A DNA stretch of 33,135 nt from an uncultured Clostridia bacterium (GTDB lineage Bacteria > Bacillota > Clostridia > Oscillospirales > Oscillospiraceae), in the NCBI GenBank assembly GCA_938049125.1, contig CALICR010000154.1, forward strand, positions 1-33,135, written 5' to 3'. The notes beneath the pieces were generated by a model, which made no database searches, was not told where the DNA came from, and saw only the letters and a list, made by a program, of their open reading frames with translations. The stretch's first letter is position 1, and every line of letters begins with the position of its first letter. Position numbers and translations under genes: made by a program. Positions 211 to 29,299 of the stretch are shown one piece after another.

Positions 211-214
211 GGTG

Positions 215-1255: not shown

Positions 1256-1258
1256 GGT

Positions 1259-2236: not shown

Positions 2237-2390
2237 GTTTCAGTTCCTCCTGGTCATTTCTTTATTTTACATGAATTCCCGGATAAATACAAGGAAATCT
2301 TTTCAGCCCTTTTCCTTTCCGGAAAAATGTAGTATAATACCTCCAAGAAGCCGCGCGGCCCCGCCGCCGGATGTAAAGGAGAAGACCGCC

Positions 2391-6820: not shown

Positions 6821-8899
6821 ATGGCAGATCAGAACGCCCCAAATCGTCGGACGCAGTGGGGGAATTGTGCGCTCATTGGGCTCTTTACTGCGGCAACGTT
6901 TTTTTTGTTCGGGCCGCTGAACCTCTATGTGAGCAATAAAAATGAGTTTTCTTTTTATCTTCGGGACATTTTGCCGTGGATCCTCGGGTGCTTTTTGCTT
7001 GCGGCTTTGGTCCTGACGGTTATCCCCGCCGCAATCCGGAATAAAAGGGCGCGGGATATCGTGCTTGCGGTGATTCTGGGGCTCGGCATCGGGTTTTATG
7101 TGCAGGGGAATTTTATGTCCGGCGGCTATGGGCAGCTGAACGGAAAGAGCATCGACTGGGACGCGATGACCGGACGCGGCATTGTCAACACGGTCGTGTG
7201 GGCGCTCTGCATTCTGCTGCCGGTCGCGGCGGTCCTGTTTGTGAAGGGATGGAAAACGGCGTTCCTGCGCGATGCCGCTCTGGCACTGACGGCGGTGCAG
7301 CTGCTGGCAACGGTGATCGCTTGTGTGGCGGCACCGGCCAAGCAGGACGTAGACTTCACCATCAATACCGACGGAGCCTTCACGCTGGCAGAGGAAAACA
7401 ATGTTGCCGTCTTCCTGACGGATACCTTTTATTCGGAGCTGTTCGAGGAGATCATCACAGAGGATCCCTCCTATTATGACGTTTTTTCCGGTTTTACGTT
7501 TTTCAAGGATACCTCCGGCGTCGGCTGCTCAACAAAGGGCACGTTGCCGTATATCCTGACGGGTGTCTGGAATGAGAATAAGATGCCGTTCCATGATTAC
7601 ATTGACCATGCCTATGATCACAATACACTGTATGAGACACTGCTGGATCGGCAGTATGACACGAGACTGTACGTGACAACCCGCTTTGTCAGCGCGAAGC
7701 ATACGCAGTATTTCGCCAACATTACCGGCGGCTCCGGACTTGCGGACCCGGCGGCGACAGCGGGCCTCATGTATAAATTTACGGCATTCACCTATATGCC
7801 GCATTTTCTGAAGCCGCAGTTCTGGTTCTATTCCGGTGATTTCTCCGCGGTTGACAGCGGAGAACGCGCGGATCATTCCCTGCGCCTCTCGCCGGACAGC
7901 GCTTTTTATTCCAGCCTGTGTGAGGCCGGGATCACGGTCGATCCGTCCTATGCGGGAACCTATCGCTTTTACTATCTGAACGGTCCCCACGCGCCCTACG
8001 TGATGGATGAGCACGCCCAGGCGGCAGAGGAGGGAACGGTGACACAGCGGCAGCAGGCGATCGGAACGCTTGAGATTCTCCGCACGTATCTGGAGCAGCT
8101 GCGCGAAACAGGGCTTTACGACAGTACGACGGTCATGATTCTGGCCGACCACGGCGCGGAGACAAAGAATTATATCAATCCGATGCTCTGCGTCAAGCCT
8201 GCGGGCGCGGCGGACGAACCGCTGAAGGTCTCCTCCGCGGAGATTGCGTTCTCGGACCTGCAGCCGACCCTGCTGAAGGCGATCACGGGCGACGAGTCCC
8301 TGACGAGCGTTTTTGATATCCCGGAGGGCGAAAGCCGGGAGAGAAGAGCGATTTGGTACGTGTGGAACCATGCCGCCTGGCAGGAGGATTACCTTCCGGA
8401 CCTGAGCGAGATCTTGATCACAGGAGACGTCCGCGACCTGTCCACCTGGCGCCCCACGGGGCATATGTATACTGCGAGCGGAGAAAAAGTGACGGATTAC
8501 AGCTATGAGTTGGGGACGGAGCTCTACTATAACGGTTCGCAGTTTGACGAAGAACACTATTTTATTGGCCTTTCCTATCCGGAGGAAAATTTCACCTGGA
8601 CCGATGGGGAATGGGTGAACTGGAATTTCCGCCCTGTGCAGTACGAAGGGGAAGACCTTGTATTCCGCGTAAATTACGTTGCCGCGCTGGATAATCAGAA
8701 GGCGATCCTGCATGTCAATGGATATGAACAGGAGCTGACGGTCGGGGATGGAGAGACGCTGGAGTATGTGATCCCGGAGGAATATATTTTGGACGGGACA
8801 CTCTCCCTGTTTTTACAGCTCCCCAATTACCGGCGCGGGGATGGGGATGCGAGAGATATCGCGGTGGCCATCCGTAGTATCTCGCTGAACGCGGAATAA
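6821..8899 (+). CDS. LtaS/sulfatase-type (alkaline-phosphatase superfamily) membrane phosphotransferase with an extra C-terminal domain
   Basis: 692 aa with an AAGGGGGA RBS. About five N-terminal TM helices are followed by an extracytoplasmic domain with NVAVFLTDTF, STKGTLPYILTG (candidate nucleophile Thr region) and MILADHGAE (the sulfatase-family DHG motif). The last ~150 aa contain GLSYPEENFTWTDGEWV, a pattern recurrent in envelope-glycan proteins. Confidence 0.8.
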   Translation: MADQNAPNRRTQWGNCALIGLFTAATFFLFGPLNLYVSNKNEFSFYLRDILPWILGCFLLAALVLTVIPAAIRNKRARDIVLAVILGLGIGFYVQGNFMSGGYGQLNGKSIDWDAMTGRGIVNTVVWALCILLPVAAVLFVKGWKTAFLRDAALALTAVQLLATVIACVAAPAKQDVDFTINTDGAFTLAEENNVAVFLTDTFYSELFEEIITEDPSYYDVFSGFTFFKDTSGVGCSTKGTLPYILTGVWNENKMPFHDYIDHAYDHNTLYETLLDRQYDTRLYVTTRFVSAKHTQYFANITGGSGLADPAATAGLMYKFTAFTYMPHFLKPQFWFYSGDFSAVDSGERADHSLRLSPDSAFYSSLCEAGITVDPSYAGTYRFYYLNGPHAPYVMDEHAQAAEEGTVTQRQQAIGTLEILRTYLEQLRETGLYDSTTVMILADHGAETKNYINPMLCVKPAGAADEPLKVSSAEIAFSDLQPTLLKAITGDESLTSVFDIPEGESRERRAIWYVWNHAAWQEDYLPDLSEILITGDVRDLSTWRPTGHMYTASGEKVTDYSYELGTELYYNGSQFDEEHYFIGLSYPEENFTWTDGEWVNWNFRPVQYEGEDLVFRVNYVAALDNQKAILHVNGYEQELTVGDGETLEYVIPEEYILDGTLSLFLQLPNYRRGDGDARDIAVAIRSISLNAE

Positions 8900-8939
8900 A
8901 TCTCTGCGTGAACGACAAGGATGGCGAAAGGGATAGCGA

Positions 8940-10820
8940 ATGAACAAACTCTTGGAACTTCTGGGCGTACCGCTTTGTGCGCTGATGACGGTTTGCTATG
9001 ATCTGGTACACAACTATGTGGTCGCCATTGTGATCTTCACGGCACTGACGAAGATCATTCTGCTGCCGGTCTCCATGTGGGTGCAGCGGAACGGCATTGC
9101 TATGGTGCGCATGATGCCGGAGCTGAACAGGCTGAAGATCAAGTATTTCGGCGATCAGGAGACGATCGCCGAACAGCAGCAGGCACTTTACAAAAAGGAG
9201 CACTACAGCCCACTGGTCAGTACGGTGCCGATGATCATTCAGATCGTCCTGCTGATGGGTGTCATCGGTGCGGTCAAGACGCTGCTTGGCAGTGCCGAGA
9301 GCACACTGAACCTCATTCCGATGCAGGCGGGCGGCGCAACGCTGCTGATGCCGCTGGGGGCAGGGCTTGCGGCGCTCTGCCTGACGCTGGCGCAGAACAA
9401 GATTGGCCCGCTGCAGCGTGAGCAGGTGAAGGCGGAGCAGATCATGACCGGTGCCGTTTCCGTGTGCATCTCGCTGTTCCTCGGCGCATTCGTGTCGCTG
9501 GGAACCGGCGTGTACTGGATCGCAAGCAATCTTTGGTCGATCCCGCTTCAGCTCCTGCTGAACATTCTCGTCAATCCGAAAAAGTACATCGACTATGAAG
9601 CGCTCGAAGCCAGCCGCAAGGAGCTGGCAACGATGACCAGCCTCGGCACCACGGTCTCCAAGGAGGACAAAAAACGCGAGAAGGCGGACTACAAGCGCTT
9701 TTTCTCTGTGGCGAACAAGCATCTTGTGTTCTATTCCGAAAAGAGCGGCTTCTATAAGTATTTCCAGAACGTCATCGAATATCTGCTTTCTCACTCGAAT
9801 GTCATCATTCACTATGTGACGAACGATCCGAACGACAAGATCTTTGAGCTGGCGAAGGAGCAGCCGCGCATCCGTCCCTATTATATCGGGCCGAAGAAGA
9901 TCATCACGCTGATGATGAAGATGGACGCGCAGATTGTCGTTATGACGACGCCGGATCTCGAGAATTACTACATCAAGCGCAGCTATGTCCGCAAGGACAC
10001 CGAGTACATCTACCTCTGCCATGGCGTGATGAGCACGACCATGTGCATGCGCAAGGGCGCCTATGACCACTTCGATACCGTCATGTGTGTCGGTCAGCAC
10101 CAGATCGACGAGATCCGGGAGACCGAGGCGATGTACCATTTGCCCGCCAAGAATCTCGTGCCCTGCGGCTACGGCATGCTCGACAATATGCTTGCTGCCT
10201 ATGAGAAGATGCCGGAGGAAGCGCACGCGCAGAAGCGTATCCTGATCGCGCCGTCATGGCAGGAGGGCAACATTCTGGAGAGCTGCATCGAGGAGCTGGT
10301 GCAGCAGCTCTACGGCGAGGGACACTTCGTGGTCGTCCGTCCGCACCCGGAATTCATCAAGCGGTTCCCCGGCAAGATGGAAGCCATTGCGGCGAAGTTC
10401 CAGAATCTTGATCCGAAGCTCTTCAGTCTGGAAACGGACTTCTCCTCCAACGTGACAATCTACACGGCGGACATCGTCATCACCGACTGGTCCGGCATCG
10501 CGCAGGAGTTCGCGTTCACGACCAAGCGCCCCGTCCTGCTCATCAACACGCCGATGAAGGTGCTGAATCCTGAATATGTCAAATATGAGCACCAGCCGCT
10601 CGACATCACGCTCCGTCCGGAGCTTGGCAGGACGCTGGAGCTGGATGAAATTTCCAAGGCGGGCGCGGCGGTCGAGGAGCTGCTTGAAAACCGCGCCTAC
10701 TATGCGGAAAGACTGGATGAAATCACGCGCCGCTGTGTGTTCAATCTCGGCTCCAGCGGTGCTGCTGCGGGACGCTATATTCTGAAGAAGATCAGCAAGC
10801 CCGTGAAAACAACGAAATAA
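8940..10820 (+). CDS. Fusion protein: N-terminal YidC/Oxa1-like insertase domain plus C-terminal TagB/TagF-type CDP-glycerol glycerophosphotransferase domain
   Basis: 626 aa in one uninterrupted ORF. The N-terminal part (~aa 1-215) reads VAIVIFTALTKIILLPVSMWVQRNGIAMVRMMPELNRLKIKYFGDQE..QQALYKKEHYSPLVSTVPMIIQIVLLMG, matching the YidC TM1/coiled-coil/TM2 pattern. The C-terminal part (~aa 255-620) has ILIAPSWQ, VVVRPHPEF and ADIVITDWSGIAQEFAFTTKRPVLLIN, all typical of TagF-family enzymes. Confidence 0.8.
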   Translation: MNKLLELLGVPLCALMTVCYDLVHNYVVAIVIFTALTKIILLPVSMWVQRNGIAMVRMMPELNRLKIKYFGDQETIAEQQQALYKKEHYSPLVSTVPMIIQIVLLMGVIGAVKTLLGSAESTLNLIPMQAGGATLLMPLGAGLAALCLTLAQNKIGPLQREQVKAEQIMTGAVSVCISLFLGAFVSLGTGVYWIASNLWSIPLQLLLNILVNPKKYIDYEALEASRKELATMTSLGTTVSKEDKKREKADYKRFFSVANKHLVFYSEKSGFYKYFQNVIEYLLSHSNVIIHYVTNDPNDKIFELAKEQPRIRPYYIGPKKIITLMMKMDAQIVVMTTPDLENYYIKRSYVRKDTEYIYLCHGVMSTTMCMRKGAYDHFDTVMCVGQHQIDEIRETEAMYHLPAKNLVPCGYGMLDNMLAAYEKMPEEAHAQKRILIAPSWQEGNILESCIEELVQQLYGEGHFVVVRPHPEFIKRFPGKMEAIAAKFQNLDPKLFSLETDFSSNVTIYTADIVITDWSGIAQEFAFTTKRPVLLINTPMKVLNPEYVKYEHQPLDITLRPELGRTLELDEISKAGAAVEELLENRAYYAERLDEITRRCVFNLGSSGAAAGRYILKKISKPVKTTK

Positions 10821-10833
10821 AAGGAGAATCATC

Positions 10834-11091
10834 ATGAAAAAACTGCTCGGACGTCTTTATTTTGTGATCTGCTTTGTGCTGATCCTTTCTCTCAGCGCTT
10901 CTGCGTATCTGGACCCCTCCGTCATGACCTATGCGATCCAGATCATCGCCGGCATTGCCGTTGCGGTCGGCGCGGTGGTCGGTATTTACTGGCGCAAGGC
11001 GAAGAAAAAGGTGCAGGATAAGCTCGGCATCGACGAAAACAGCAAAAAGGAACAGGAAGAGGACGTCATCGAGATCAGAGAAGAGGACTGA
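10834..11091 (+). CDS. Small membrane protein, unknown function
   Basis: 85 aa with an AAAAGGAGAA RBS. It has a signal/TM segment, then AYLDPSVMTYAIQIIAGIAVAVGAVVGIYWRKAKKK (a second TM), and a K/E-rich tail. Confidence 0.7.
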   Translation: MKKLLGRLYFVICFVLILSLSASAYLDPSVMTYAIQIIAGIAVAVGAVVGIYWRKAKKKVQDKLGIDENSKKEQEEDVIEIREED

Positions 11092-11109: not shown

Positions 11110-11146
11110 GCACGACGGTCTCGCGGCCGTCGTGCCATATTCTTTT
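11110..11146 (+). terminator. Intra-locus hairpin, a possible weak terminator or attenuator
   Basis: Perfect 9-bp stem GCACGACGG (11110-11118) / CCGTCGTGC (11127-11135) followed by CATATTCTTTT. The T-tract is short and interrupted. Confidence 0.4.
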
Positions 11147-11163: not shown

Positions 11164-12987
11164 ATGCAGGCAGTTATCCTGGCCGCCGGAATGGGAAAGC
11201 GGCTGAAAAGCCTGACCGCCAACAATACAAAGTGCATGGTGAAGGTCAACGGCGTGACGCTGATCGAGCGGATGCTGCGCCAGCTGGACCGGCTGAAGCT
11301 GCGGCGGATCGTCATCGTCGTGGGGTATCAGGGACAGAAGCTCATCGACTTTATCTCGACGCTGGACGTAGAGACGCCCATCGAGTACATCGACAATCCC
11401 ATCTACGATAAGACGAACAACATCTATTCCCTGGCACTGGCCCGCGGCGTGCTGGTGGAGGACGACACGCTCCTGCTGGAGTCCGACCTCATCTTTGCGG
11501 ATGGTACGCTGGAGGCCCTGGTCTCCGACCCGTATCCGACGCTGGCACTCGTGGACCGCTACGAGAGCTGGATGGACGGCACCGTTGTCACGCTGAACGA
11601 GGACAATTCCATCCGGAAGTTCATCCCCGGCAAGCAGTTCCGCTTCGAGGATATCCCCGGCTATTATAAAACGGTCAACATCTATAAGTTCAGCAGGCGT
11701 TTTTCGAAGGACATCTATGTGCCCTTCCTGACTGCCTATTCCTCCGCGCTGGGTGACAACGAGTACTACGAGCAGGTGCTCCGCGTGATCGCCATGCTGG
11801 ACCATCCGGAGATCCGCGCCAAGTGCATGGACGGGCGCGTCTGGTACGAGATCGACGATATTCAGGACCTCGACATTGCAGAGTCCATGTTTGCGCCGCC
11901 GGAGGAGAAGGTCAAGAAGCTCGGCAGCCGCTACGGCGGCTACTGGCGCTATCCCAAGCTGCTCGATTTCTGTTATCTTGTCAATCCCTATTTCCCGCCC
12001 AAGCGGCTGATGGACGAGATCAAGGCGAACTTTGAGACGCTGCTCACCCAGTATCCCTCCGGGATGCGCGTCAACTCGCTGCTGGCGGCGAAGGATTTCG
12101 GCGTGAAGCAGGAGCACATTCTCGTCGGCAACGGCGCGGCGGAGCTGATCAAGGCGCTGATGGAGGGCGAGACCGGCAAGGTCGGTTTTGTTCGCCCGAC
12201 ATTTGAGGAATATTATAACCGCTGCGACCCCGCGCAGCGCGTGGTCTATCAGCCCGAGGGATTCACCTACACGGCGGATGACCTCATGCGGGAGTTTTCC
12301 GGAAAGGGAATCTCGACGCTGCTGTTCATCAATCCGGACAACCCCTCCGGCAGCTACCTGCTGAAGGCGGAGGTCTGCCGCCTTGCGGACTGGGCGGAGA
12401 CAGAGGGCATCCGGCTGGTGCTGGATGAATCCTTTGCCGACTTCTCGGACGAGCTGGACAATACGCTGATCCTCGATGAGATGCTGGAGCGCTATCCGCA
12501 CCTCGTGGTGGTCAAGAGCATCTCAAAGTCCTACGGCGTGCCCGGTCTGCGCCTCGGCGTGTTGGCATCCGCGGATGAGGCGATGATCGCCGCCATGAAG
12601 AAGAATGTGGCGATCTGGAACATCAATGCCTTCGCGGAATTCTACCTCCAGATCGAGGAGAAATATAAAAAGGATTATGCGCTGGCACTGGAGAAGTTCC
12701 GTGCGGCGCGTGCGGAGTACGTCGCCGCGCTGCGGGACATTCCCGGTCTGCGGGTCCTGCCGTCGCAGGCAAACTATGTCATGGCCGAGCTGACCGGCGG
12801 CATCACCGCAGCGGAGCTGACGGCGCGGCTCCTGAGCGAATACAACATCCTCATCAAGGATCTCACGGCAAAGGTACAGGGTGGGCAGTATATCCGCCTT
12901 GCCGTCCGGGACGAGAAGGACAATGCGAGACTGGTGCAGGCGCTGCGCGCGGTCTGCGGCGGAGCTTTGGAGGGAAAGAATCCATGA
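11164..12987 (+). CDS. Bifunctional LicC-type (CTP:phospho-X) cytidylyltransferase / CobD-HisC-type class I/II PLP enzyme (FrbH-like architecture)
   Basis: 607 aa with a GGAGGAAG RBS. The N-terminal ~245 aa read MQAVILAAGMGKRLKSLT..KCMV, NNIYSL and VWYEIDDIQDLDIAE, which aligns with pneumococcal LicC motifs. The C-terminal ~360 aa have VGNGAAELI, FINPDNPSGSYL, LVLDESFADF, the PLP-lysine motif SISKSYGVPGLRLGVL, and WNINAFAE. Confidence 0.8.
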   Translation: MQAVILAAGMGKRLKSLTANNTKCMVKVNGVTLIERMLRQLDRLKLRRIVIVVGYQGQKLIDFISTLDVETPIEYIDNPIYDKTNNIYSLALARGVLVEDDTLLLESDLIFADGTLEALVSDPYPTLALVDRYESWMDGTVVTLNEDNSIRKFIPGKQFRFEDIPGYYKTVNIYKFSRRFSKDIYVPFLTAYSSALGDNEYYEQVLRVIAMLDHPEIRAKCMDGRVWYEIDDIQDLDIAESMFAPPEEKVKKLGSRYGGYWRYPKLLDFCYLVNPYFPPKRLMDEIKANFETLLTQYPSGMRVNSLLAAKDFGVKQEHILVGNGAAELIKALMEGETGKVGFVRPTFEEYYNRCDPAQRVVYQPEGFTYTADDLMREFSGKGISTLLFINPDNPSGSYLLKAEVCRLADWAETEGIRLVLDESFADFSDELDNTLILDEMLERYPHLVVVKSISKSYGVPGLRLGVLASADEAMIAAMKKNVAIWNINAFAEFYLQIEEKYKKDYALALEKFRAARAEYVAALRDIPGLRVLPSQANYVMAELTGGITAAELTARLLSEYNILIKDLTAKVQGGQYIRLAVRDEKDNARLVQALRAVCGGALEGKNP

Positions 12988-13928
12988 AAATCGTATCCTT
13001 CGACCAGATCACGAGGCTGAATATTTCGCCGTACACCTGCTATGAGTGGGTCAGCGAGGGCATCCGGCGGAAGCACGAAGCACTGCTGCCGGCAAAAATC
13101 AGCCTCAAGCCGGATATTCCGGGCGTGTTTTACAATACGATGCCGTCGATCCTGCCCTTTGCGGGCTATGCCGGCGTCAAGCTGGTGACGCGCTATCCGG
13201 AGCGCGCGCCGAGCCTCGACAGTGAGATCCTGCTCTATGATCTCGAGAGCGGCAAAAATCTGGCGCTGCTCGACGGAAACTGGATCACGACCATGCGAAC
13301 CGGCGCCGTTGCGGCACATTCGGTCAGGCTCCTGGCAAAGCAGGATTTCTCGACCATCGGTATGATCGGGCTCGGCAACACGGCACGCGCGGCATTCCTT
13401 GTGCTGCTGTCTCTCTATCCGGAGCGGCAGTTCACGGTGAAGCTGAAGCGCTACAAGGATCAGCATGAGCTGTTTGCAGCACGCTTTGCAGCGTATGCCA
13501 ATGTGAAGTTTGTCTACTGTGACAGCTATGAGGAGCTTGTGCGTGGCAGCGAGGTCGTGCTTTCTGCCGTCACAATGTTTGAGGATGACATCTGTCCCGA
13601 TGACTGCTTTGAGGAGGGCGTCCTGCTGGTGCCGATCCACACGCGCGGCTTTACCAACTGCGACCTGTTCTTTGACAAGGTGTTTGCCGATGATGTGAAC
13701 CATGTCAAGGGCTTCAAGAATTTCGGCAAATTCCGCAGCTTTGCGGAGGTGTCGGACGTTGTAAACGGCAAGGTGCCCGGACGCACGGACGATCGCGAGC
13801 GCATCCTCGCCTACAACATCGGAATTTCCCTGCACGACATCTATTTTGCAGGCAAAATCTATGAGCTGCTGGCAGCGCACTGCCCGGAGGCAGACCTGCG
13901 CGCACCGACGGAAAAATTCTGGATCTGA
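12984..13928 (+). CDS. Ornithine cyclodeaminase / mu-crystallin family NAD(P)-dependent enzyme
   Basis: 314 aa. Its ATG overlaps the upstream stop (ATGA at 12984-12987), and GGAGGGA lies upstream. It carries LLDGNWITTMRTGAVAAHSVRLLA and the Rossmann motif IGMIGLGNTARA, both typical of the OCD family. Confidence 0.8.
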   Translation: MKIVSFDQITRLNISPYTCYEWVSEGIRRKHEALLPAKISLKPDIPGVFYNTMPSILPFAGYAGVKLVTRYPERAPSLDSEILLYDLESGKNLALLDGNWITTMRTGAVAAHSVRLLAKQDFSTIGMIGLGNTARAAFLVLLSLYPERQFTVKLKRYKDQHELFAARFAAYANVKFVYCDSYEELVRGSEVVLSAVTMFEDDICPDDCFEEGVLLVPIHTRGFTNCDLFFDKVFADDVNHVKGFKNFGKFRSFAEVSDVVNGKVPGRTDDRERILAYNIGISLHDIYFAGKIYELLAAHCPEADLRAPTEKFWI

Positions 13929-13959: not shown

Positions 13960-14751
13960 ATGATACGCGGCTATCTCAATACCGTTAAAAAATACCGGTT
14001 TCTCTTGAATCAGCTTGTAGCGCGGGACTTTAAGACGCGCTACAAGCGGAGCATCCTCGGCGTGCTCTGGAGCATGCTGAACCCGCTTCTGACCATGTGC
14101 GTTCAGTATCTGGTCTTTGTCAACATCTTCCGGTGGCAGATCGACAACTACGCGGTCTACCTCCTGATCGGTACGGTGAGCTTCAACTTTTTCTCGGAGT
14201 CGACCCAGGCGGCGCTATCCTCCGTCACGGGCAGCGCCTCGCTCATCACCAAGGTCTATATCCCGACCTATGTGTTCCCGGTGGCGAAGGTGCTCTCCTC
14301 GTGCATCAACCTGTTTTTCTCGACGCTGGCGCTCTATCTCATCATCTTCATTCAGGGCGTACCGCTCAACTGGTGCCATCTGCTGATCCCGGTGCTCTAT
14401 CTGGCGCTGATCGGCTTCAGCATGGGCGTCGGCATGATCCTTGCGGCGGTCATGGTCTATTTCCGGGATACCCAGTTCCTCTACGGCGTGCTGATCGTGC
14501 TGTGGATGTACCTGACGCCGCTGTTTTATCCCGTCAGCATCATTTCGGACAGCGCCTCGCCCCTCGTCTGGGGTCTCTATCAGTGCAACCCGATGTACCA
14601 GTATGTGACGTTCTTCCGCACGCTGGTGCTGGACGCTGCAGTGCCGACGGCGGCGCAGTTCGCCTGGTGCTTCGGCTATGCGGCGCTCTTCCTGCTCATC
14701 GGCTTCCTGGTGTTCAGGAAGCTCAAGAAGAACTTTATCCTGTATATCTGA
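13960..14751 (+). CDS. ABC-2 type polysaccharide/teichoic-acid export permease (TagG/Wzm-like)
   Basis: ATG at 13960 with GGAGG 9 nt upstream. The tracked start at 13846 lies inside the upstream gene. Its N-terminus is family-typical: YRFLLNQLVARDFKTRYKRSILGVLWSMLNPLL. It has six predicted TM helices. Confidence 0.88.
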   Translation: MIRGYLNTVKKYRFLLNQLVARDFKTRYKRSILGVLWSMLNPLLTMCVQYLVFVNIFRWQIDNYAVYLLIGTVSFNFFSESTQAALSSVTGSASLITKVYIPTYVFPVAKVLSSCINLFFSTLALYLIIFIQGVPLNWCHLLIPVLYLALIGFSMGVGMILAAVMVYFRDTQFLYGVLIVLWMYLTPLFYPVSIISDSASPLVWGLYQCNPMYQYVTFFRTLVLDAAVPTAAQFAWCFGYAALFLLIGFLVFRKLKKNFILYI

Positions 14752-14760
14752 GGTAGCGCT

Positions 14761-15867
14761 ATGGCAGACGCAATGATCGACATCCGCGAAGCGACGATGG
14801 ATTTCCACCTCGAACATGAGAATATCAACAGCTTCAAGGAGTTTTTTGTCAACCTTCTGAAGGGAAAAATTCATTATGACCATTTCCGCGCGGTAGACCA
14901 TGTCAATCTGCAGGTGAAGCCCGGCGAGGTCTGCGGCATCATCGGCAGAAACGGCGCGGGCAAGAGCACCCTGCTCAAGATGATCGCCGGCGTGCTGACG
15001 CCGACGGGCGGCTCAATTAAAATTCACGGCAACATCGCGCCGATGCTGGAGCTTGGCGCGGGCTTTGACCAGGATCTGACGGCGCGGGAGAATATCTTCC
15101 TGAACGGTGCGATCCTCGGCTACAGCAAGGAATTTCTGGAGAAAAAATTCGACCATATCGTAGAATTCGCGGAGCTGAAGGACTTTATCGACCAGCCGGT
15201 GCGGACGTTCTCCTCCGGCATGATGATGCGACTCGCATTTTCCATCGCCACGCAGGTGGACCCTGAAATTCTGATCGTTGACGAGATCCTCTCCGTGGGC
15301 GACAGCCACTTCCGCCAGAAGAGCGAGGGGCGGATGCGCGAAATGATGAGCGGCGGCACCACAGTGCTGATGGTCTCCCATGTGCTCGCGCAGATCCGCA
15401 GCATGTGCAACCATGTCATCTGGCTCGACCATGGCAAGGTCATCATGGACGGCGATGCCAAGACGGTCTGCGACGCCTACGAGGGCCTTATCGACTTCGA
15501 CAACGCGCCGAAGTTCGAGATCGGCCGCACCATGGACGACATTCAGCGCATCACCATGTACCCGGACAACTGGCTGCCGCCGCAGGGCTCGTACAAAATC
15601 AAAACCGGTCCGATGGGGCTGGTTTCCGGCGTGCTGCTCTGCCCGTTTCAGGATCTGACCGGGAAGGAAAAGGTAAAAATCTCACTCGACTGCAACGGCG
15701 ATGAAGAGCCGGTCTCCATCGCGATCACCGAGGAGCACACAAGTTTTGAGCTTCAGGGAAAACCAAACACCGTCGTTACCGTCTATATAGATAGCAACTT
15801 TTCCCGCTCACCGGGCAACGACCAGCGCGCGCTTTCGGTCGTTCTGGAGGATACGGACGGGAATTAA
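14761..15867 (+). CDS. Polysaccharide/teichoic-acid export ABC ATPase (TagH/Wzt-like) with a ~120-aa C-terminal extension
   Basis: 368 aa. It has Walker A GRNGAGKST, signature SSGMMMRLAFS, Walker B ILIVDE and the H-loop VSH. Residues ~250-368 are a non-ABC, beta-rich domain. Confidence 0.88.
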   Translation: MADAMIDIREATMDFHLEHENINSFKEFFVNLLKGKIHYDHFRAVDHVNLQVKPGEVCGIIGRNGAGKSTLLKMIAGVLTPTGGSIKIHGNIAPMLELGAGFDQDLTARENIFLNGAILGYSKEFLEKKFDHIVEFAELKDFIDQPVRTFSSGMMMRLAFSIATQVDPEILIVDEILSVGDSHFRQKSEGRMREMMSGGTTVLMVSHVLAQIRSMCNHVIWLDHGKVIMDGDAKTVCDAYEGLIDFDNAPKFEIGRTMDDIQRITMYPDNWLPPQGSYKIKTGPMGLVSGVLLCPFQDLTGKEKVKISLDCNGDEEPVSIAITEEHTSFELQGKPNTVVTVYIDSNFSRSPGNDQRALSVVLEDTDGN

Positions 15868-15888
15868 ATCAAATTGGGAGTATCAGAT

Positions 15889-18800
15889 ATGGAGTTTCAG
15901 AGAGAACACCCCCCGCTGATCAGTGTTGTGATGCCGCTTTTTAACACAGCGCAATTTCTGCCTGCCGCGCTGGAAAGCGTTCTGAACCAGACCTATCAGA
16001 ATTTGCAGGTCATCGTGGTGGACGACTGCTCTACGGACGGCAGCGCGGAGATCCTCGCGTCCTATGACGACCCGCGGCTGGAGATTTTCCGCATGGAAGA
16101 AAACAGCCATGTCTGCGCGGCCCGGAACGAAGGATTCCGCCATGTGCGCGGTGACTATGTTGCGACCATTGACAGCGATGATGTTTGGCTGCCCGAAAAA
16201 CTGGAAATGCAGCTGTCCTGGATGGAGATACATCCGGACTGCGGCGTCTGTTTTACCTGGAGCGATATGATCGATGAGAACGGCGCGCTGGCCAATCACG
16301 AGAATGCATGGTTCTATGAGATGTTTCGCCAGCCGAACCGGACGCAGCGGGAGTGGCTGCTGCATCTGCTGGAGCATGGAAACTGCCTGAATAACTCCTC
16401 ACCGTTGATGCGCCGCGCGGTATTGGACCAGGTGGGCGGCTACAACCTGACGCTTGTTCAGCTTCAGGATTTTGAGTATTGGATCCGCGTCGTTTCAAAG
16501 TTCCCAATCAGCGTTCTCCCGGCGAAGCTGGTGCAGTACCGCCGCGTGCGGGAGAATAACCGTTCGGTCAGTGCAAATAATGTGACCAATAAGCTCCGCA
16601 GCGAGAACGAGGAGATCTTTGTCTGCTCTCACTTCTTTGATTGGATCTCGGATGAGCTATTCTGCGAGCTGTTCCGTTCAGATTTTCATGATTCGAACGC
16701 TTCTGCGGCGGCAGAGCTGCAATGTGAACGGGTATTCCTGCTCCGACGTGCCTACTGTGCGCCGGAACCGTATCTTTCGAGGATGCAGATGCTTCTGTGT
16801 GAGCCGGAGACAACGGCGGTCCTGCGGGAAAACTATCACTATAGGCCGAAGGACTTTTATGGAGAGAATCGCGTTAAGCGCTATTTTGGCCGAGGTCTGC
16901 AGCTTCGCCAGCGCGAAGAAATCGAGATTGAGAAAGCGACCCTGTGCTTTGCGCTCCCGGATGGCGCGTCGGAGACCATCGAATTTGAAAAAGACCCCTA
17001 CGTCTACGAACGGGCGGGGGACCGACTCATATGTGACGCAAAGATTCCGGCTGGGGCGGTCGCTGTGACATTCCGGCCGATACAGTGCGGAAGCTGTATC
17101 CTCAGCGAACTGCATATCTGTGCCGATCGAGAGTCGCTTCTGGCGGAAGAGTTTACGTGCACCAGGATCGGGGACCACTGGGTCTATGAGGCGGGAAAAG
17201 ATACGATTTTTTATCCGCTGCCTGCGCAGGCAGAACGACTGACGGTCTCTATGCGGCGCACTCTGATTCGCGCAGAAAACGAGTTTCTGCTGGGTGCGGG
17301 GGAGCACGCTTTTCCGACGGAGCTTCAGGTATGCATGAAGCAAGCCAGGCAAACCCAGGAGGAGATGACGGAGCGGCACCGTGCGCGCCTCCGCACCATG
17401 GCCCAGGAGCAGCGGGAGCAGCGCCGCCGCATGAATGAGGCGCATCAGCAGGAGCTTGCACAGCTCCGGCAGGAGAAGGCGAACGTGGAAGGCGAGTGCC
17501 GCCAGCTCCGCGATACGGAAAACCGGCTCCTGAACGATCTTGATGCCATTCATCACAGCCGGTCGTGGCGCATTGCGCAGTTTTTCTCGAGAATTCTGCG
17601 CTTTTTCATCCCGATCGGAAGCAAGCGGGCACTGTTTTGCCGGATTTTGTGGATGCTTATCCGCCATCCCGTGATCTTCTTCCGGAACCTGACTCCGCGG
17701 AAGATCAAAAAAGCGCTCCGTATGATGCGTCGCGGCGACACAGAGGGCGTCCGCCTGCTGATGCGCGGCAAGGTGACGGGAGAACCTGCGCCATCCTCCA
17801 TTGTGACTGCGGTGCCGGAGCTGGCAGCCGTGGACATGCGGGAAAAGACGATTGATGATTATCAGCCGCTCACCGTTCCGCAGTGGGACGATCCGACGGT
17901 GTCCATCGTCGTCCCGGTCTACAACCAGTTCGAATTCACCTATCACTGCGTGGAGTCTATTCTGAAGCACAGCGGCGACGTGACCTATGAGATCCTCATC
18001 GCCAACGACTGCTCCACGGACCTCACCACGGAGATCGACAAAATCCTGCCCGGTGTCCGCTGCATCACGAACGAGCAGAACCTGCGCTTCCTGCGCAACT
18101 GCAACCGCGCGGCGGGCTTCGCCAAGGGCAAGTATATCCTCTTCCTCAACAACGATACCCAGGTACAGCCGGACTGGCTCCGGCCGCTGGTGACGCTCAT
18201 CGAGAGCGCGCCGGACGTGGGACTCGTCGGCTCCAAGCTGATCTACCCGGACGGCAAGCTGCAGGAGGCGGGCGGCATCCTCTGGCGCGACGGCTCTGCG
18301 TGGAATTTCGGAAACCGCCAGAATCCGGCGCTGCCGCAGTTCAACTATGTCAAGCAGGTGGACTACATTTCCGGCGCCGCCATTATGCTCTCCCGCAAGC
18401 TCTGGGAGGAGATCGGCGGCTTTGACGAGACCTTCGCCCCCGCCTACTGCGAAGACAGCGACCTCTGCTTTACGGTCCGGAAGCTGGGCTACCGCGTGCT
18501 CTATCAGCCGCTTTCCGTGGTCGTCCACTTTGAGGGCGTCTCCAACGGCACGGATACCTCCTCCGGACAGAAGAAATACCAGATCGAAAACTCAAAAAAA
18601 TTCCGCGAGAAGTGGGCAGAAGAGCTTGCAAAACACCCGGAAAACGGCGAAAATGTGTTTCAGGCACGGGATTATTCCTATGGAAAAAAGACGCTGCTCA
18701 TGGTGGATCACTATGTGCCGCAGTTCGACAGGGACGCGGGCAGCCGCACGGTCTTCCAGTATCTCAAGCTCTTTGTTTCGCAGGGCTTCAACGTCAAGTT

Positions 18801-19788
18801 CATCGGCGACAACTTTTATCAGCACGAGCCGTATACCACGGTGCTTCAGCAGCTGGGCATTGAGGTGCTCTACGGCCCCGAGTGCGCGGCACACTGGAAG
18901 GACTGGATCATCGACAATGCGGAGCACTTCGACTATGTGTTCCTGAACCGTCCCCACATTGCGCCGAAATACCTTGATTTCCTGCGGCTGTACACGCACG
19001 CCCGCATCATGTACTACGGCCACGACCTCGCCTTCCTGCGTGAGATGCGCGAATATGAGGTCACCGGCGACGCCTCCTTCCGTGACTCCGCCAAAGAGTG
19101 GATGCCCAAGGAGCTGGCGCTGATGCGCGAGGCGGACATGGCGTATTACCCCTCCTATGTGGAGGTGGATGAGATCCACAAGCTTGACCCGGATATCCGT
19201 GTCAAGGCGATTCCGGCCTACCTCTTTGAGAACGTCGAATGGGAGGGCTACGACTTCGCGGCGCGGAAGGACATCATGTTCATCGGCGGCTTCGGACACC
19301 GTCCCAATGTGGACGCGGTCAAGTGGCTGGCGGAGGACATCCTGCCCGCCCTGCGGAAGCTGCTGCCCGGCGTCAAGATCCATGTCCTCGGCTCCAACCC
19401 GCCGAAGGAGGTGCAGGCGCTGGCATCCAGTGACCTTATCATCGAGGGCTTTGTGACCGACGAGCAGCTTGATGCCTTCTACCGCGAGAGCCGGATTTCT
19501 CTGGTTCCGCTGCGCTACGGCGCGGGCATCAAGGGCAAGGTCATTGAGGCGATGCGCAATGGCACGCCGGTCGTGACCACGCCGACGGGTGCCGAGGGCA
19601 TCAAGGACGCCGAGTCGGTCATGGCAGTGGAGGAGACGGCGGAGGCGCTGGCAAAGCGCATTGCGGGGCTCTACAACGATGAAGCAGCGCTCACCGAGCT
19701 GAGCCGGAGGAGCGTGGAGTATGTGAAGAAGAATTATTCGCCCGCCAATGCAATTCAGGTCATCGGACCGGAATTTGATCTCACTTAA
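15889..19788 (+). CDS. Multidomain glycosyltransferase: GT2, unknown region, coiled coil plus amphipathic segment, GT2, GT4/GT1-like
   Basis: The ATG at 15889 has GGGAG 8 nt upstream, and I prefer it over the tracked TTG at 15874, giving 1299 aa.
- First GT2 domain: ISVVMPLFNTAQFL..VIVVDDCSTDGS..IDSDDVW.
- Heptad-like charged stretch: nt ~17355-17555 (QEEMTERHRARLRTMAQEQREQRRRMNEAHQQELAQLRQEKANVEGE), then SRSWRIAQFFSRI.
- Second GT2 domain: from ~17897 (VSIVVPVYNQ..ANDCSTD..LNNDT..EDSDLC).
- C-terminal GT4-like part: GGFGHRPNVDAV..EGFV..GAGIKGKVIEAMRNGTPVVTT. Confidence 0.85.
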   Translation: MEFQREHPPLISVVMPLFNTAQFLPAALESVLNQTYQNLQVIVVDDCSTDGSAEILASYDDPRLEIFRMEENSHVCAARNEGFRHVRGDYVATIDSDDVWLPEKLEMQLSWMEIHPDCGVCFTWSDMIDENGALANHENAWFYEMFRQPNRTQREWLLHLLEHGNCLNNSSPLMRRAVLDQVGGYNLTLVQLQDFEYWIRVVSKFPISVLPAKLVQYRRVRENNRSVSANNVTNKLRSENEEIFVCSHFFDWISDELFCELFRSDFHDSNASAAAELQCERVFLLRRAYCAPEPYLSRMQMLLCEPETTAVLRENYHYRPKDFYGENRVKRYFGRGLQLRQREEIEIEKATLCFALPDGASETIEFEKDPYVYERAGDRLICDAKIPAGAVAVTFRPIQCGSCILSELHICADRESLLAEEFTCTRIGDHWVYEAGKDTIFYPLPAQAERLTVSMRRTLIRAENEFLLGAGEHAFPTELQVCMKQARQTQEEMTERHRARLRTMAQEQREQRRRMNEAHQQELAQLRQEKANVEGECRQLRDTENRLLNDLDAIHHSRSWRIAQFFSRILRFFIPIGSKRALFCRILWMLIRHPVIFFRNLTPRKIKKALRMMRRGDTEGVRLLMRGKVTGEPAPSSIVTAVPELAAVDMREKTIDDYQPLTVPQWDDPTVSIVVPVYNQFEFTYHCVESILKHSGDVTYEILIANDCSTDLTTEIDKILPGVRCITNEQNLRFLRNCNRAAGFAKGKYILFLNNDTQVQPDWLRPLVTLIESAPDVGLVGSKLIYPDGKLQEAGGILWRDGSAWNFGNRQNPALPQFNYVKQVDYISGAAIMLSRKLWEEIGGFDETFAPAYCEDSDLCFTVRKLGYRVLYQPLSVVVHFEGVSNGTDTSSGQKKYQIENSKKFREKWAEELAKHPENGENVFQARDYSYGKKTLLMVDHYVPQFDRDAGSRTVFQYLKLFVSQGFNVKFIGDNFYQHEPYTTVLQQLGIEVLYGPECAAHWKDWIIDNAEHFDYVFLNRPHIAPKYLDFLRLYTHARIMYYGHDLAFLREMREYEVTGDASFRDSAKEWMPKELALMREADMAYYPSYVEVDEIHKLDPDIRVKAIPAYLFENVEWEGYDFAARKDIMFIGGFGHRPNVDAVKWLAEDILPALRKLLPGVKIHVLGSNPPKEVQALASSDLIIEGFVTDEQLDAFYRESRISLVPLRYGAGIKGKVIEAMRNGTPVVTTPTGAEGIKDAESVMAVEETAEALAKRIAGLYNDEAALTELSRRSVEYVKKNYSPANAIQVIGPEFDLT

Positions 19789-19809: not shown

Positions 19810-20820
19810 ATGATTATCACCAAGACGCCGTTCCGGATGTCGTTTTTCGGCGGCGGCACCGATATGCCGCAGTTCTTCCGGGAGCACGGCGGCGCAGTCC
19901 TCTCGACCACCTTTGACAAGTACTGCTATGTGAATGTGCGCCATCTGCCGCCGTTCTTCGACTACCGTACGGAGCTTTCCTATGCAAAGACGGAGCGGGT
20001 CGTGGATCCGGCGGAGATCGAGCATCCTGCCATCCGCGAGGCAATGAAGCTGCTCGACATGTACGACATCCGCCTGACCTACGAGGCGGATCTGCCCGCC
20101 CGCACGGGACTCGGCACCAGCTCGTCCTTCGCGGTCGGCATGCTGAATGCATTCTATGCCCTCAAGGGCAAGTATGCGGACAAGAAGAAGCTCGCCAATG
20201 AAGCGATTTACCTCGAACGCACGCTCTGCAACGAGGCCGGCGGCTGGCAGGATCAGATCGCTGCGGCGTATGGCGGCCTCAACCGCATCAATTTCCACGA
20301 GGACAGCTACGATGTGCTGCCGGTCATCGTTTCGCCGGAGCGCAAGCAGCAGCTGAATCGGAATCTCATGCTTTACTTCACGGGCTTTACCCGCTTTTCC
20401 TCGGCGATTCAGCAGTCCACCAGCAAGACCATGAAGGACAAGACCACGCAGCTCCTCGAAATGCTGGCGCTGGTCGATCAGGCGGAGCGGGTCCTGACGG
20501 ATAAGACCGCCGATCTCGACGATTTCGGCAGGCTGCTCCACGAGAGCTGGATGCTCAAAAAGCAGACCGGCACGAAAATTTCGACGGGCGGCATCGATTC
20601 CATCTATGAAAAGGGGATGCGTGCGGGCGCACTGGGCGGCAAGCTGCTCGGTGCGGGCGGCGGCGGCTTCCTGCTCTTCTATGTGCGCGAGGAGGATCAG
20701 AGCGCGGTGCAGCGCGCCATGGGCGACCTGATGCGCGTGCCCTTCGCCTTTGAGGACGGCGGCACACGGGTCATCCACTACACGCCGGAAACCTATATTC
20801 CGAGAGGGGAAACGCAATGA
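19810..20820 (+). CDS. hddA: D-glycero-alpha-D-manno-heptose 7-phosphate kinase (GHMP kinase)
   Basis: 336 aa with an AAGGAGG RBS. The HddA-typical N-terminus is MIITKTPFRMSFFGGGTDMPQFF. The GHMP motif PARTGLGTSSSFAVG and GAGGGGFLLFY are present. It sits next to the other heptose pathway genes. Confidence 0.85.
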   Translation: MIITKTPFRMSFFGGGTDMPQFFREHGGAVLSTTFDKYCYVNVRHLPPFFDYRTELSYAKTERVVDPAEIEHPAIREAMKLLDMYDIRLTYEADLPARTGLGTSSSFAVGMLNAFYALKGKYADKKKLANEAIYLERTLCNEAGGWQDQIAAAYGGLNRINFHEDSYDVLPVIVSPERKQQLNRNLMLYFTGFTRFSSAIQQSTSKTMKDKTTQLLEMLALVDQAERVLTDKTADLDDFGRLLHESWMLKKQTGTKISTGGIDSIYEKGMRAGALGGKLLGAGGGGFLLFYVREEDQSAVQRAMGDLMRVPFAFEDGGTRVIHYTPETYIPRGETQ

Positions 20821-22109
20821 AAACGGTCATTATGGCAGGCGGCAAGGGGACGCGGATCGCCTCCGTCAATTCCGAGGTGCCGAAGCCGATGATCCCGATC
20901 CTCGGCAAGCCGATCCTCGAATACCAGCTGGACTGTCTGCGCCGCCAGGGCTGCACCGATATTATTCTGGTGATCGGGCATCTCGGTCACATCGTCCGGG
21001 ATTACTTCGGCGACGGCAGCGGCGTTTCTCCTGCAACGGGGGAGCCGTTTGGCGTCTCCATCGCATATATCGAGGAGACGGAGCCGCTCGGCACCGCCGG
21101 GGCGCTCTATCTCCTGAAGAACGAGCTGACGGAGGACTTTCTGCTCCTCTGCGGCGACGTCATCTTTGACATCGACGTTGGGCGCTTCGCCCGCTTCCAT
21201 AAGGAACACGGCGGACTCGCCACCCTGTTTACACACCCGAACAGCCACCCTTATGACAGCGGCATCATCATGGCGGACGGGGACGGGCGCGTCACGAACT
21301 GGCTCCACAAGGAGGAGTCGCGCAAATGGTATCGCAACCGCGTCAATGCGGGGCTGCACTTCCTCTCACCGGAGCTCTTCCGGCAGCCGGGACTGTTTGA
21401 AGAACTCAAAAAAGTCGACCTTGACCGCGAGGTGCTCAAGCCGCTGATCCCCACGGGACAGCTCTTTGTCTACGACAGTCCCGAATATGTCAAGGATATG
21501 GGCACGCCGGACCGCTTCTATGCCGTCACCGAGGACATCCGCAGCGGTAAGGTGCAGGCAAAGAACCTTGCCCATAAGCAGAAGTGCGTCTTTCTCGACC
21601 GGGACGGCACCATCAACCGCTATGTCGGCTTCCTGCGCAGAATCGACGAATTCGAGCTGCTGCCCGGTGTCGCCGAGGCCATCCGCAAGATCAACGAGTC
21701 CGGCTATCTCGCCATCGTTGCAACGAACCAGCCGGTCATCGCCCGCGGCGAGGTGACGGAGGCGGAGCTGCGGGAGATTCATAATAAGATGGAGACGCTT
21801 CTGGGGCAGGAGGGTGCCTATCTCGATGCCATCTACTACTGCCCGCACCATCCGCACAAGGGCTACGAGGGTGAGATCCCGGAACTGAAATTTGACTGCG
21901 ACTGCCGCAAGCCAAAGCCCGGCATGCTGCTGCAGGCTGCGGCGGACTTCAACATCGACCTCTCCGCGTCCTACATGGTGGGAGACGGTGAGAACGACGT
22001 GGAATGCGGCAAAGCCGCCGGCTGCACGCCGGTGCTGCTGACCGGAGAGGCGCGGACGGACGTGCGGTGCTGTCCCACGCTTCTTGATTTTGTGAACGAA
22101 ACATTCTGA
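20817..22109 (+). CDS. hddC-gmhB: Fused D-glycero-alpha-D-manno-heptose 1-phosphate guanylyltransferase (HddC-like) / D,D-heptose 1,7-bisphosphate phosphatase (GmhB)
   Basis: 430 aa with an ATGA overlap onto hddA. The N-terminal NTase domain has VIMAGGKGTRI..PKPMIPILGKPILEYQL. The C-terminal HAD-IIIA domain has VFLDRDGTIN, ATNQPVIARG, the Zn-site pattern CPHHP...CDCRKPKPGM, and MVGDGENDVE. Confidence 0.85.
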   Translation: MKTVIMAGGKGTRIASVNSEVPKPMIPILGKPILEYQLDCLRRQGCTDIILVIGHLGHIVRDYFGDGSGVSPATGEPFGVSIAYIEETEPLGTAGALYLLKNELTEDFLLLCGDVIFDIDVGRFARFHKEHGGLATLFTHPNSHPYDSGIIMADGDGRVTNWLHKEESRKWYRNRVNAGLHFLSPELFRQPGLFEELKKVDLDREVLKPLIPTGQLFVYDSPEYVKDMGTPDRFYAVTEDIRSGKVQAKNLAHKQKCVFLDRDGTINRYVGFLRRIDEFELLPGVAEAIRKINESGYLAIVATNQPVIARGEVTEAELREIHNKMETLLGQEGAYLDAIYYCPHHPHKGYEGEIPELKFDCDCRKPKPGMLLQAAADFNIDLSASYMVGDGENDVECGKAAGCTPVLLTGEARTDVRCCPTLLDFVNETF

Positions 22110-22134
22110 CTGAGACCGAAAGGAGAACTGCGCT

Positions 22135-22791: not shown

Positions 22792-22844
22792 CGGTCCGGC
22801 GGGGAGCGGACAAACGGTTTTGTGAGGGATGGAATGTGACAAGA

Positions 22845-29233: not shown

Positions 29234-29299
29234 TTAATTCTGTTCTGCGCCTCTGCGGCGTTTGAGATAGCAAAGAAAATGGAGAAATGGAGGAAAACC

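Follow-up and report, generated by a model that had tools for sequence, protein, structure and literature searches.

We analysed a stretch of 33,135 nucleotides (the window) from an uncultured Clostridia bacterium (contig CALICR010000154.1 of assembly GCA_938049125.1). The subject of this study is a pair of adjacent genes in it: the first codes for a LicC-like nucleotidyltransferase fused to a CobD-like pyridoxal phosphate (PLP) enzyme (hereafter the fusion), the second for an NAD(P) enzyme of the ornithine cyclodeaminase (OCD)/mu-crystallin family. The window is a teichoic-acid-like, ABC-transporter-dependent polymer locus of a human-gut organism with 60% G+C; its features are collected in Table 1. 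An original prediction, made from the sequence alone, had read the gene pair as a pathway to a cytidine diphosphate (CDP)-activated head group. The open reading frames (ORFs) lie exactly where it placed them, and the translational coupling it described is present: the stop codon of the fusion and the start codon of the OCD gene overlap in an ATGA at 12984-12987. Both starts are preceded by a GGAGG-type ribosome-binding site.

Table 1. Features of the window, with the evidence for each
Feature	Coordinates	Strand	Size	Basis and remarks
LtaS/sulfatase-fold membrane protein	6821-8899	+	692 aa	PF00884 23.2 bits, under the cutoff of 25 (weak)
YidC/Oxa1 insertase domain plus TagF-like CDP-glycerol-type phosphotransferase domain	8940-10820	+	626 aa	PF02096 91.3 bits, PF04464 35.3 bits
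Predicted small membrane protein	10834-11091	+	85 aa	ORF list, hydrophobic N-terminal half; between the TagF-like gene and the fusion
GC-rich hairpin, T-rich tail	11110-11135	+	11-bp stem	Consensus scan, pattern match only; just 5' of the fusion ribosome-binding site
Fusion gene (LicC-like nucleotidyltransferase plus CobD-like PLP enzyme)	11164-12987	+	607 aa	ORF list, Pfam/NCBIfam/PDB matches
N-terminal LicC-like nucleotidyltransferase domain of the fusion	11164-11913	+	~residues 1-250	
C-terminal CobD-like fold-type-I PLP domain of the fusion	11926-12984	+	~residues 255-607	
OCD gene (OCD/mu-crystallin-family NAD(P) enzyme)	12984-13928	+	314 aa	PF02423
ABC-2 permease	13960-14751	+	263 aa	PF01061; start codon and ribosome-binding site; gene calls in L081
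ABC ATPase	14761-15867	+		PF00005
GT2-GT2-GT1 multidomain glycosyltransferase	15874-19788	+	1304 aa	Pfam
GHMP kinase, nucleotidyltransferase-HAD fusion and SIS-domain isomerase, in a row	19810-22791			
PMT_2-like membrane protein	22746-25076		776 aa	

The three domains of the original prediction (LicC-like cytidylyltransferase, PLP enzyme of the CobD/HisC subfamily, OCD-family NAD(P) enzyme) were recovered concordantly with Pfam, NCBIfam and the PDB. In Pfam the fusion matches NTP_transf_3 (PF12804, 41.8 bits, cutoff 27) and NTP_transferase (PF00483, 31.3 bits, cutoff 21.2) at residues 3-121 and Aminotran_1_2 (PF00155, 106.8 bits, cutoff 19.7) at residues 314-594, and the OCD protein matches OCD_Mu_crystall (PF02423, 99.7 bits, cutoff 24). 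The motifs NNIYSL, WYEIDDIQDL and SISKSYGVPGLRLG, on which the domain assignment had relied, are at least 97% conserved in 74 homologues, as are 227 of the 607 positions of the fusion. The nucleotidyltransferase domain matches LicC (1jyk, E 1.4e-9) and the PntC-AEPT fusion of Treponema denticola (6pd1, E 1.9e-10). Nucleotidyltransferases of this type carry the signature GXG(T/S)RX4-8PK with the catalytic Lys at its end (PMC6697681). In the fusion this region reads AAGMGKRLKSLTANNTK; it retains G-x-G, the Arg and the terminal Lys, none of which varies among the 74 homologues, while T/S is replaced by Lys and Pro by Thr.

The PLP domain scores highest with the CobD model TIGR01140 (180.7 bits, cutoff 290.55), followed by the HisC model TIGR01141 (141.1 bits, cutoff 276.55); other HisC models scored lower still. 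Both scores lie below the cutoffs, and thus the domain is a relative of both families and a member of neither; a bona fide CobD was rejected on these grounds, and so was a bona fide HisC, an outcome that would have spoken against the original prediction. The closest solved structure is 6oux, a 'threonine phosphate decarboxylase-like enzyme' (167 bits, E 5.6e-48), which we take to be SMUL_1544, the serine-phosphate decarboxylase of norcobamide synthesis in Sulfurospirillum. Salmonella CobD (1lc5) reached 105 bits, aligned over the full PLP domain, and HisC structures at most 70 bits; the class V aminotransferase half of 6pd1 gave no match to the PLP domain in the PDB search. A gene on a Sulfurospirillum plasmid annotated as 'norcobamide biosynthesis serine-O-phosphate decarboxylase' is 32.7% identical to the fusion. 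The Schiff-base lysine motif S-x-S/T-K is invariant in the family: SISKSYGVPGLRLG aligns with SLSKDFGIAGVRLG of 6oux and SLTKFYAIPGLRLG of 1lc5, and the Lys of SISKSYG falls on the PLP-lysine region of both structures. By these comparisons the PLP domain is nearer to decarboxylases than to HisC aminotransferases. When 1.84 billion protein representatives were searched with the PLP domain, the top matches were mostly fusions of about 600 aa, which points to an old and diverse architecture. Stand-alone matches, looked up by cluster, carried generic names only.

The PDB relatives of the OCD protein are distant (E about 1e-16 to 1e-10). It reached none of the NCBIfam equivalog cutoffs for alanine dehydrogenase, SbnB, Pyr2C reductase, BhcD, OCD and EutC; the best score was 85.9 bits against a cutoff of 417, with 76 bits for ala_DH_arch (cutoff 409) and 62 bits for SbnB (cutoff 327). 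The protein is thus distant from every characterised subfamily. The Rossmann motif GLGN and the motifs GxK and RTGA are nevertheless conserved in 95 OCD sequences, and their Lys and Arg are presumably the carboxylate-binding positions. The family has further invariant basic residues, R70 and R74 among them, which would fit a phosphorylated substrate.

More than 8000 database proteins match the fusion family. Fusions with 64-69% identity are present in at least 577 reference species, almost always within surface-glycan loci, and the records of the carriers are labelled as Lachnospiraceae, Oscillospiraceae, Ruminococcus, spirochaetes, Coriobacteriales, Desulfovibrio and a Bacteroides-labelled metagenome-assembled genome; the fusion of Fusobacterium vincentii is 48% identical. 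We surveyed the neighbourhood of the fusion in 80 loci (L001-L080) over a range of 6 kb, with neighbouring ORFs clustered and the representatives annotated. Across these loci, the identity of 64-69% extends over records labelled Bacillota, Spirochaetota, Actinomycetota, Desulfobacterota and Bacteroidota. This cross-phylum identity, together with the star-like shape of the tree of the fusion, points to frequent horizontal transfer of the module.

The most frequent neighbour is a LicD-family phosphotransferase, found in 31 of the 80 loci and usually directly upstream of the fusion. TagF-like genes are near the fusion in six loci (L019, L028, L077, L023, L054 and L056), LicA-LicC-like fusions are near it in six loci, and a CDP-OH_P_transf gene (PF01066) adjoins it in L084-86; the remaining neighbours are typical polysaccharide genes (rml genes, glycosyltransferases, flippases). 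With LicD, TagF-like or CDP-OH_P_transf proteins flanking the fusion in 37 of 80 loci and in L084-86, it is likely, as predicted, that a CDP-activated head group is passed to a TagF-type enzyme. In two loci (L030 7277-7900 and L057 7275-7898) an ORF of about 207 aa is directly 5' of the fusion; read by eye it looks like a cytidylate-kinase-like P-loop protein, and it might recycle the CMP freed by the phosphotransferase.

More distant fusions with 31-36% identity occur in phosphonate or natural-product clusters of Bacillus cereus, Bradyrhizobium and Erwinia, which bears out the FrbH-like logic of the original prediction. The Bradyrhizobium relatives are split genes accompanied by aepX, coding for phosphoenolpyruvate (PEP) mutase, and the Erwinia relative stands with CDP-alcohol transferase, HAD and ATP-grasp genes. 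On a B. cereus plasmid (NZ_CP053657.2; L089 3443-12741) a relative with 32% identity is found together with dxr and an AAC(3)-type N-acetyltransferase, and acyl carrier protein, aminoacyl-tRNA-ligase-like and ATP-grasp genes belong to the same cluster. It looks like a phosphonate cluster of the FR-900098/fosmidomycin type with a resistance copy of dxr.

The same gene pair was found again in 20 of the 80 independent genomes, with the OCD gene adjoining the fusion and in most of them its direct neighbour. In the reverse direction, 80 metagenome loci were collected around the OCD gene, 42 of them with long flanks, and in 21 of these 42 the fusion is adjacent. Thus the arrangement is not due to chance. 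Domain content, coupling, conservation and neighbourhoods are direct observations. By and large the original prediction stands, but its three activities form a modular set and not a fixed unit. Among the 62 fusion loci flanked by at least 1.2 kb on either side, an OCD gene accompanies the fusion in only 17 (~27%), and an opine-dehydrogenase-family gene in 21: the OCD gene alone was found in 15 loci, the opine dehydrogenase alone in 19, both in two and neither in 26. A locus with one partner tends to lack the other (odds ratio 0.18, Fisher p = 0.034). In the full set, the opine-dehydrogenase-family gene (PF02317 and PF01210) directly adjoins the fusion in 26 of 80 loci. It scores 103 bits with PF02317 and conserves the residues aligned to His212, Arg324 and Asp329 of Pecten octopine dehydrogenase (3c7a), which we take to be catalytic. 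In the 26 loci with neither partner, the adjacent genes were heterogeneous, and no third recurrent partner was seen except a DUF1015 gene. On a neighbour-joining tree of the fusion, the type of partner is scattered and does not segregate. This indicates that the reaction of the fusion is the same whichever partner is present, and that the fusion is sufficient alone. The OCD protein is an optional accessory to it.

Seen from the OCD gene, the partner is not always the fusion. In 12 more of the 42 loci the OCD gene adjoins a stand-alone LicC-like nucleotidyltransferase with a winged helix-turn-helix (wHTH) and no PLP domain, usually together with LicD, so that a LicC-like nucleotidyltransferase, fused or stand-alone, is found within 2.5 kb in 33 of 42 loci; the other nine have no recognised partner nearby. 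What regularly accompanies OCD is thus a LicC-like nucleotidyltransferase, usually with LicD, and the decarboxylase is optional. OCD and opine dehydrogenase stand side by side in about 12% of the OCD loci. A recurrent block was seen 3' of the OCD or opine dehydrogenase gene (L164 5093-12745, L074, L078, L007, L031, L132, L151), which consists of a wHTH-LicC-like nucleotidyltransferase (~300 aa), an Amidohydro_3 protein (~520 aa) and a nucleotidyltransferase-choline-kinase fusion, in this order; L164 continues with a gene for an amino-acid permease. A locus with this block can code for as many as three cytidylyltransferase-like proteins, a hint that more than one head group is made or that the pathway is longer.

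In several lineages the neighbours of the two genes point to serine metabolism. Three independent lineages have a DUF1015 gene directly 3' of the fusion, as in L048 (186 bits; 7683-8939) and in Fusobacterium (L090, region 7225-10869), or directly 3' of the fusion-OCD pair, as in L118 (7068-8114). DUF1015 proteins replace SerB and have been argued to be serine kinases, named 'SerBK' (2026 preprint, bioRxiv 10.1101/2024.10.14.618325). In L146 and L148 the gene order is LicD-fusion-OCD-phosphoglycerate dehydrogenase; this dehydrogenase is short, has no regulatory domains and reaches 420 bits on the catalytic part of TIGR01327. In L092 and L093 an OCD protein 62% identical to that of the window is encoded directly upstream of a bona fide serA (TIGR01327 578 bits, cutoff 454), and a nucleotidyltransferase, LicD or the fusion is not among the called genes of that locus. 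This OCD gene occupies the slot expected for serC and may be a candidate for a SerC-independent route to phosphoserine. The arrangement spans 6001-8681 in L092 and 776-3456 in L093, and a divergent glutamate dehydrogenase gene was observed upstream of it.

From these contexts and from the closeness of the PLP domain to 6oux, the module most likely takes in O-phospho-L-serine and yields CDP-ethanolamine. The original prediction had left a wider choice of CDP-linked phosphates derived from amino alcohols or amino acids. A CDP head group is likely and this part stands; the list of candidates is narrowed to phosphoserine by the DUF1015, phosphoglycerate dehydrogenase and serA neighbours. In the Campylobacter jejuni capsule pathway, Cj1436 is a serine-phosphate decarboxylase that forms ethanolamine phosphate from L-serine phosphate (PMC11800397), and a LicD-family enzyme (Mf1) transfers phosphoethanolamine from CDP-ethanolamine (PMC11982090).

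A possible interpretation, which as a whole we put forward tentatively, is that the fusion and the OCD protein form the head-group module of an ABC-transporter-dependent cell-wall glycopolymer locus and act in three steps; every enzyme activity assigned here to a window protein is one that we infer. In the first step, which we hold with similar reserve, the OCD enzyme might convert 3-phosphohydroxypyruvate, NH3 and NAD(P)H to O-phospho-L-serine, and would at the same time recycle the NADH made by phosphoglycerate dehydrogenase. In the second step, which homology and context make rather likely, the fusion would convert phosphoserine and CTP to CDP-ethanolamine, CO2 and PPi: the LicC-like domain would add CMP from CTP and the CobD-like PLP domain would strip the carboxyl group, possibly with cytidylylation first, as in FrbH. 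In the third step, to which we assign a moderate probability, the TagF-like domain of the YidC-TagF protein would move phosphoethanolamine to the glycan and free CMP; a LicD-family enzyme would do so in most other genomes. The YidC-TagF protein is the only candidate for a CDP-alcohol phosphotransferase in the window and therefore the likely user of the CDP-linked head group. The finished polymer would then be exported by the ABC-2 transporter.

A role of the OCD protein as a phosphoserine-forming dehydrogenase was absent from the original prediction. We favour the reductive amination of 3-phosphohydroxypyruvate, which would supply phosphoserine, only tentatively. The serA and phosphoglycerate dehydrogenase neighbours and the additional invariant basic residues speak for it, and archaeal alanine dehydrogenase, a member of the OCD family, carries out the corresponding reaction with pyruvate. 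The pairing of OCD with a stand-alone LicC-like nucleotidyltransferase and LicD, without a PLP domain, fits a supplier of phosphoserine, in this case with phosphoserine itself as the head group. Several observations weigh against this assignment or against phosphoserine as the substrate. The OCD protein beside serA belongs to a singleton lineage: its nearest relatives reach only 63% identity. In L135 the 2-hydroxyacid dehydrogenase next to OCD resembles D-lactate dehydrogenase more than phosphoglycerate dehydrogenase. L118 has both OCD and DUF1015, one of which would be superfluous if both supplied phosphoserine. The anticorrelated opine dehydrogenase in the slot of OCD suggests an equivalent role, and we know of no opine dehydrogenase that uses ammonia. 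Furthermore, neither the CobD cutoff nor that of any OCD equivalog model was reached, and phosphothreonine is a conceivable alternative substrate of the fusion.

The exchange of the two dehydrogenases could also mean that both modify the amine. The fusion would then make ethanolamine phosphate or its CDP derivative, and the OCD enzyme would join the free amine to an alpha-keto acid (pyruvate, for example) and reduce the imine, yielding a CDP-N-(1-carboxyalkyl)ethanolamine donor for an anionic or zwitterionic decoration. In an extended form, OCD and the non-homologous opine-dehydrogenase-family enzymes would be interchangeable 'head-group opine synthases'. We consider this unlikely, though by no means negligible, and the extended form equally so. 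The conserved residues of the opine-dehydrogenase neighbour agree with it. SbnB, a member of the OCD family, acts on an opine-like secondary amine, and 2-[(R)-1-carboxyethylamino]ethyl phosphate occurs in a Proteus O-antigen. The D-lactate-dehydrogenase-like gene of L135 could supply pyruvate. Amine-modifying genes adjoin the fusion elsewhere, e. g. a formyltransferase-like gene directly 5' of it in F. vincentii (L090), which suggests N-formylation of the amine, and modification at the CDP level has a precedent in FtaC, which N-methylates CDP-threonine (bioRxiv 10.64898/2026.02.12.704994). On the other hand, we know of no polysaccharide structure from the taxa considered here, the OCD protein next to serA is found with no head-group genes, other OCD genes are in clusters without the decarboxylase, and the loci in which OCD and opine dehydrogenase are adjacent would be redundant if the two were isofunctional.

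If the PLP domain were a true CobD-type threonine-phosphate decarboxylase, the product would be CDP-(R)-1-amino-2-propanol phosphate instead of CDP-ethanolamine. CobD is indeed the top NCBIfam model (181 bits) and 1lc5 aligns over the full domain. Yet the score is far under the cutoff, 6oux, taken as a serine-phosphate decarboxylase, beats CobD by 167 to 105 bits, and the context is that of serine metabolism (DUF1015/SerBK, phosphoglycerate dehydrogenase, serA). The only kinase-type domains near the fusion were the choline-kinase-like halves of the LicA-LicC fusions in 6 of 80 loci, in a survey without a search aimed at a threonine kinase. We regard this product as improbable. Formation of serinol phosphate from dihydroxyacetone phosphate, followed by cytidylylation, appears distinctly improbable. 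Here the PLP domain would act like Cj1437, the characterised dihydroxyacetone phosphate transaminase of a capsule pathway (PMC11800397), and OCD would regenerate the amino donor (alanine, glutamate or phosphoserine); alanine dehydrogenase is a member of the OCD family, and the HisC model still gives 141 bits. However, the best matches of the PLP domain are all decarboxylases, the HisC equivalog cutoffs were missed by a wide margin, and serine-kinase-like and phosphoglycerate dehydrogenase neighbours better suit the substrate of a decarboxylase.

It is very improbable that OCD is a coincidental neighbour, i. e. a housekeeping enzyme of alanine, proline or pipecolate metabolism with no link to the fusion. 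To be sure, 73% of the fusion loci have no OCD gene and the nine OCD loci without a recognised partner would agree with this, but the ATGA coupling, the direct adjacency in most of the 20 genomes with both genes and the LicC-like nucleotidyltransferase within 2.5 kb in 33 of 42 OCD-anchored loci argue against it. Finally, the known CMP-2-aminoethylphosphonate pathway or an FrbH-type pathway, to which the distant relatives with aepX or with dxr and an N-acetyltransferase and the match to 6pd1 could point, was rejected as hardly credible: the PEP mutase motif EDKxxxxxNS is found neither in the six-frame translation of the window nor, in the 80 surveyed loci, in any ORF of at least 100 aa that lies up to 6 kb from the fusion, so that the constant linkage to pepM/ppd that would have spoken against the original prediction is not seen in the close family, and the aminotransferase domain of 6pd1 belongs to class V and gave no match.

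The other genes of the window are compatible with a polymer locus of this kind. The ABC-2 permease and the ATPase are predicted to be a TagGH-like exporter for the polymer, and the 1304-aa glycosyltransferase probably builds the backbone that receives the head group. The genes at 19810-22791 are read as a nucleotide-activated D-glycero-D-manno-heptose pathway that feeds the same polymer. Two further ORFs (29234-33118, minus strand, 1294 aa; 212-2332, plus strand, 706 aa) had no Pfam match at E <= 0.001. The original prediction had also considered an LtaS-type enzyme for the transfer of the head group; LtaS-like genes recur in related loci, and no evidence was found that ties the LtaS-like protein to a CDP donor. 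In 5 of the 80 loci a YidC/Oxa1 domain is fused to an LtaS/sulfatase domain near the fusion (e. g. L056 9862-12690). A membrane insertase joined to wall-polymer enzymes is an unusual pairing. The gene for the 85-aa protein was also called in L081 and L082 and has one homologue among the 80 loci. The hairpin between this gene and the fusion could be a terminator or attenuator that parts the fusion-OCD pair from the upstream genes.

A full-text literature search found no paper on the fusion or on its combination with OCD, in agreement with the earlier statement that no characterised teichoic-acid or capsule pathway was known to use these three activities. The logic of a CDP-alcohol donor with LicD or TagF, the FrbH-type fusion and the serine-phosphate decarboxylase are known already; what is uncharacterised is their combination, its huge spread among anaerobes of gut and rumen, and the accessory dehydrogenases. 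How pentraxins, antibodies and innate receptors recognise bacterial glycans is shaped by zwitterionic phosphodiester decorations, phosphocholine and phosphoethanolamine among them. To our knowledge, the source of such groups in Gram-positive gut anaerobes is essentially unstudied. The module would give these organisms an internal, uptake-independent route to a donor of the CDP-ethanolamine type. If OCD is a phosphoserine-forming dehydrogenase, it would be a new enzyme of serine metabolism and open a redox-neutral route that leads from 3-phosphoglycerate to phosphoserine without SerC. Should it be an opine synthase instead, a new class of surface head groups would exist: an opine-like phosphodiester, of no known biosynthesis, on the wall glycans of hundreds of anaerobes of gut and rumen.

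Among the known systems, the pneumococcal genes wchX-gtp1-gtp2-gtp3 for CDP-2-glycerol show a similar layout, with a phosphotransferase, a 'glycerol-2-phosphate dehydrogenase' and a nucleotidyltransferase followed by rml genes (compare L084). Gtp3, however, is annotated as a phosphotransferase and not as a PLP enzyme, and an identity of the two systems with Gtp3 as the PLP enzyme was dropped because of this published annotation. The OCD protein shares its fold family, the GLGN motif, the Lys of GxK and the Arg of RTGA with archaeal alanine dehydrogenase (1omo), SbnB (4m54) and Pyr2C reductase (6t3e). It differs from them in that the usual first Arg is a Lys in the window family, and the region 'G-T-H-I-N-A-I-G' reads 'P-x-H-T-x-G-F-x-N-C-D'.

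The PntC-AEPT protein of T. denticola likewise has an N-terminal LicC-like nucleotidyltransferase fused to a PLP enzyme, but the latter is here a class V aminotransferase, and the pathway needs PEP mutase. In FrbH, which we take to have the two domains in the same order as the window fusion, the CMP conjugate is decarboxylated after cytidylylation. The cytidylylated substrate is L-2-amino-4-phosphonobutyrate (PMC6697681). FrbH itself is likened here by description; the sequence comparison was made with the probable FrbH-type fusion beside dxr on the B. cereus plasmid, which is about 32% identical over 99% of the query. The window family differs from these systems in that it lacks a neighbouring PEP mutase and is found in glycan loci with LicD or TagF. 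We therefore expect it to act on a phosphate ester and not on a phosphonate.

For the decarboxylation, the nearest solved relative is 6oux, while Cj1436 is likened by description. SMUL_1544 and Cj1436 are stand-alone enzymes, and their products enter norcobamide or an amide-linked decoration and are not cytidylylated. In Clostridioides difficile, FtaABCD proceed from CDP-threonine to CDP-N-methylthreonine (FtaC) and on to the TagF-like FtaD (bioRxiv 10.64898/2026.02.12.704994). By description, not by sequence, this resembles the proposed module in the CDP-activated phosphate derived from an amino acid, the modification at the CDP level and the TagF-like transfer; it differs in that the Fta system has no decarboxylase or OCD and that its target is flagellin O-GlcNAc. 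The Lic pathway is linked to the module by the match to LicC, by the frequent LicD gene beside the fusion and by the LicD-family Mf1, which accepts CDP-ethanolamine. The window itself has a TagF-like transferase, not LicD. Whereas the Lic pathway depends on uptake and phosphorylation via LicB and LicA, the head group of the window type would be made internally by decarboxylation.

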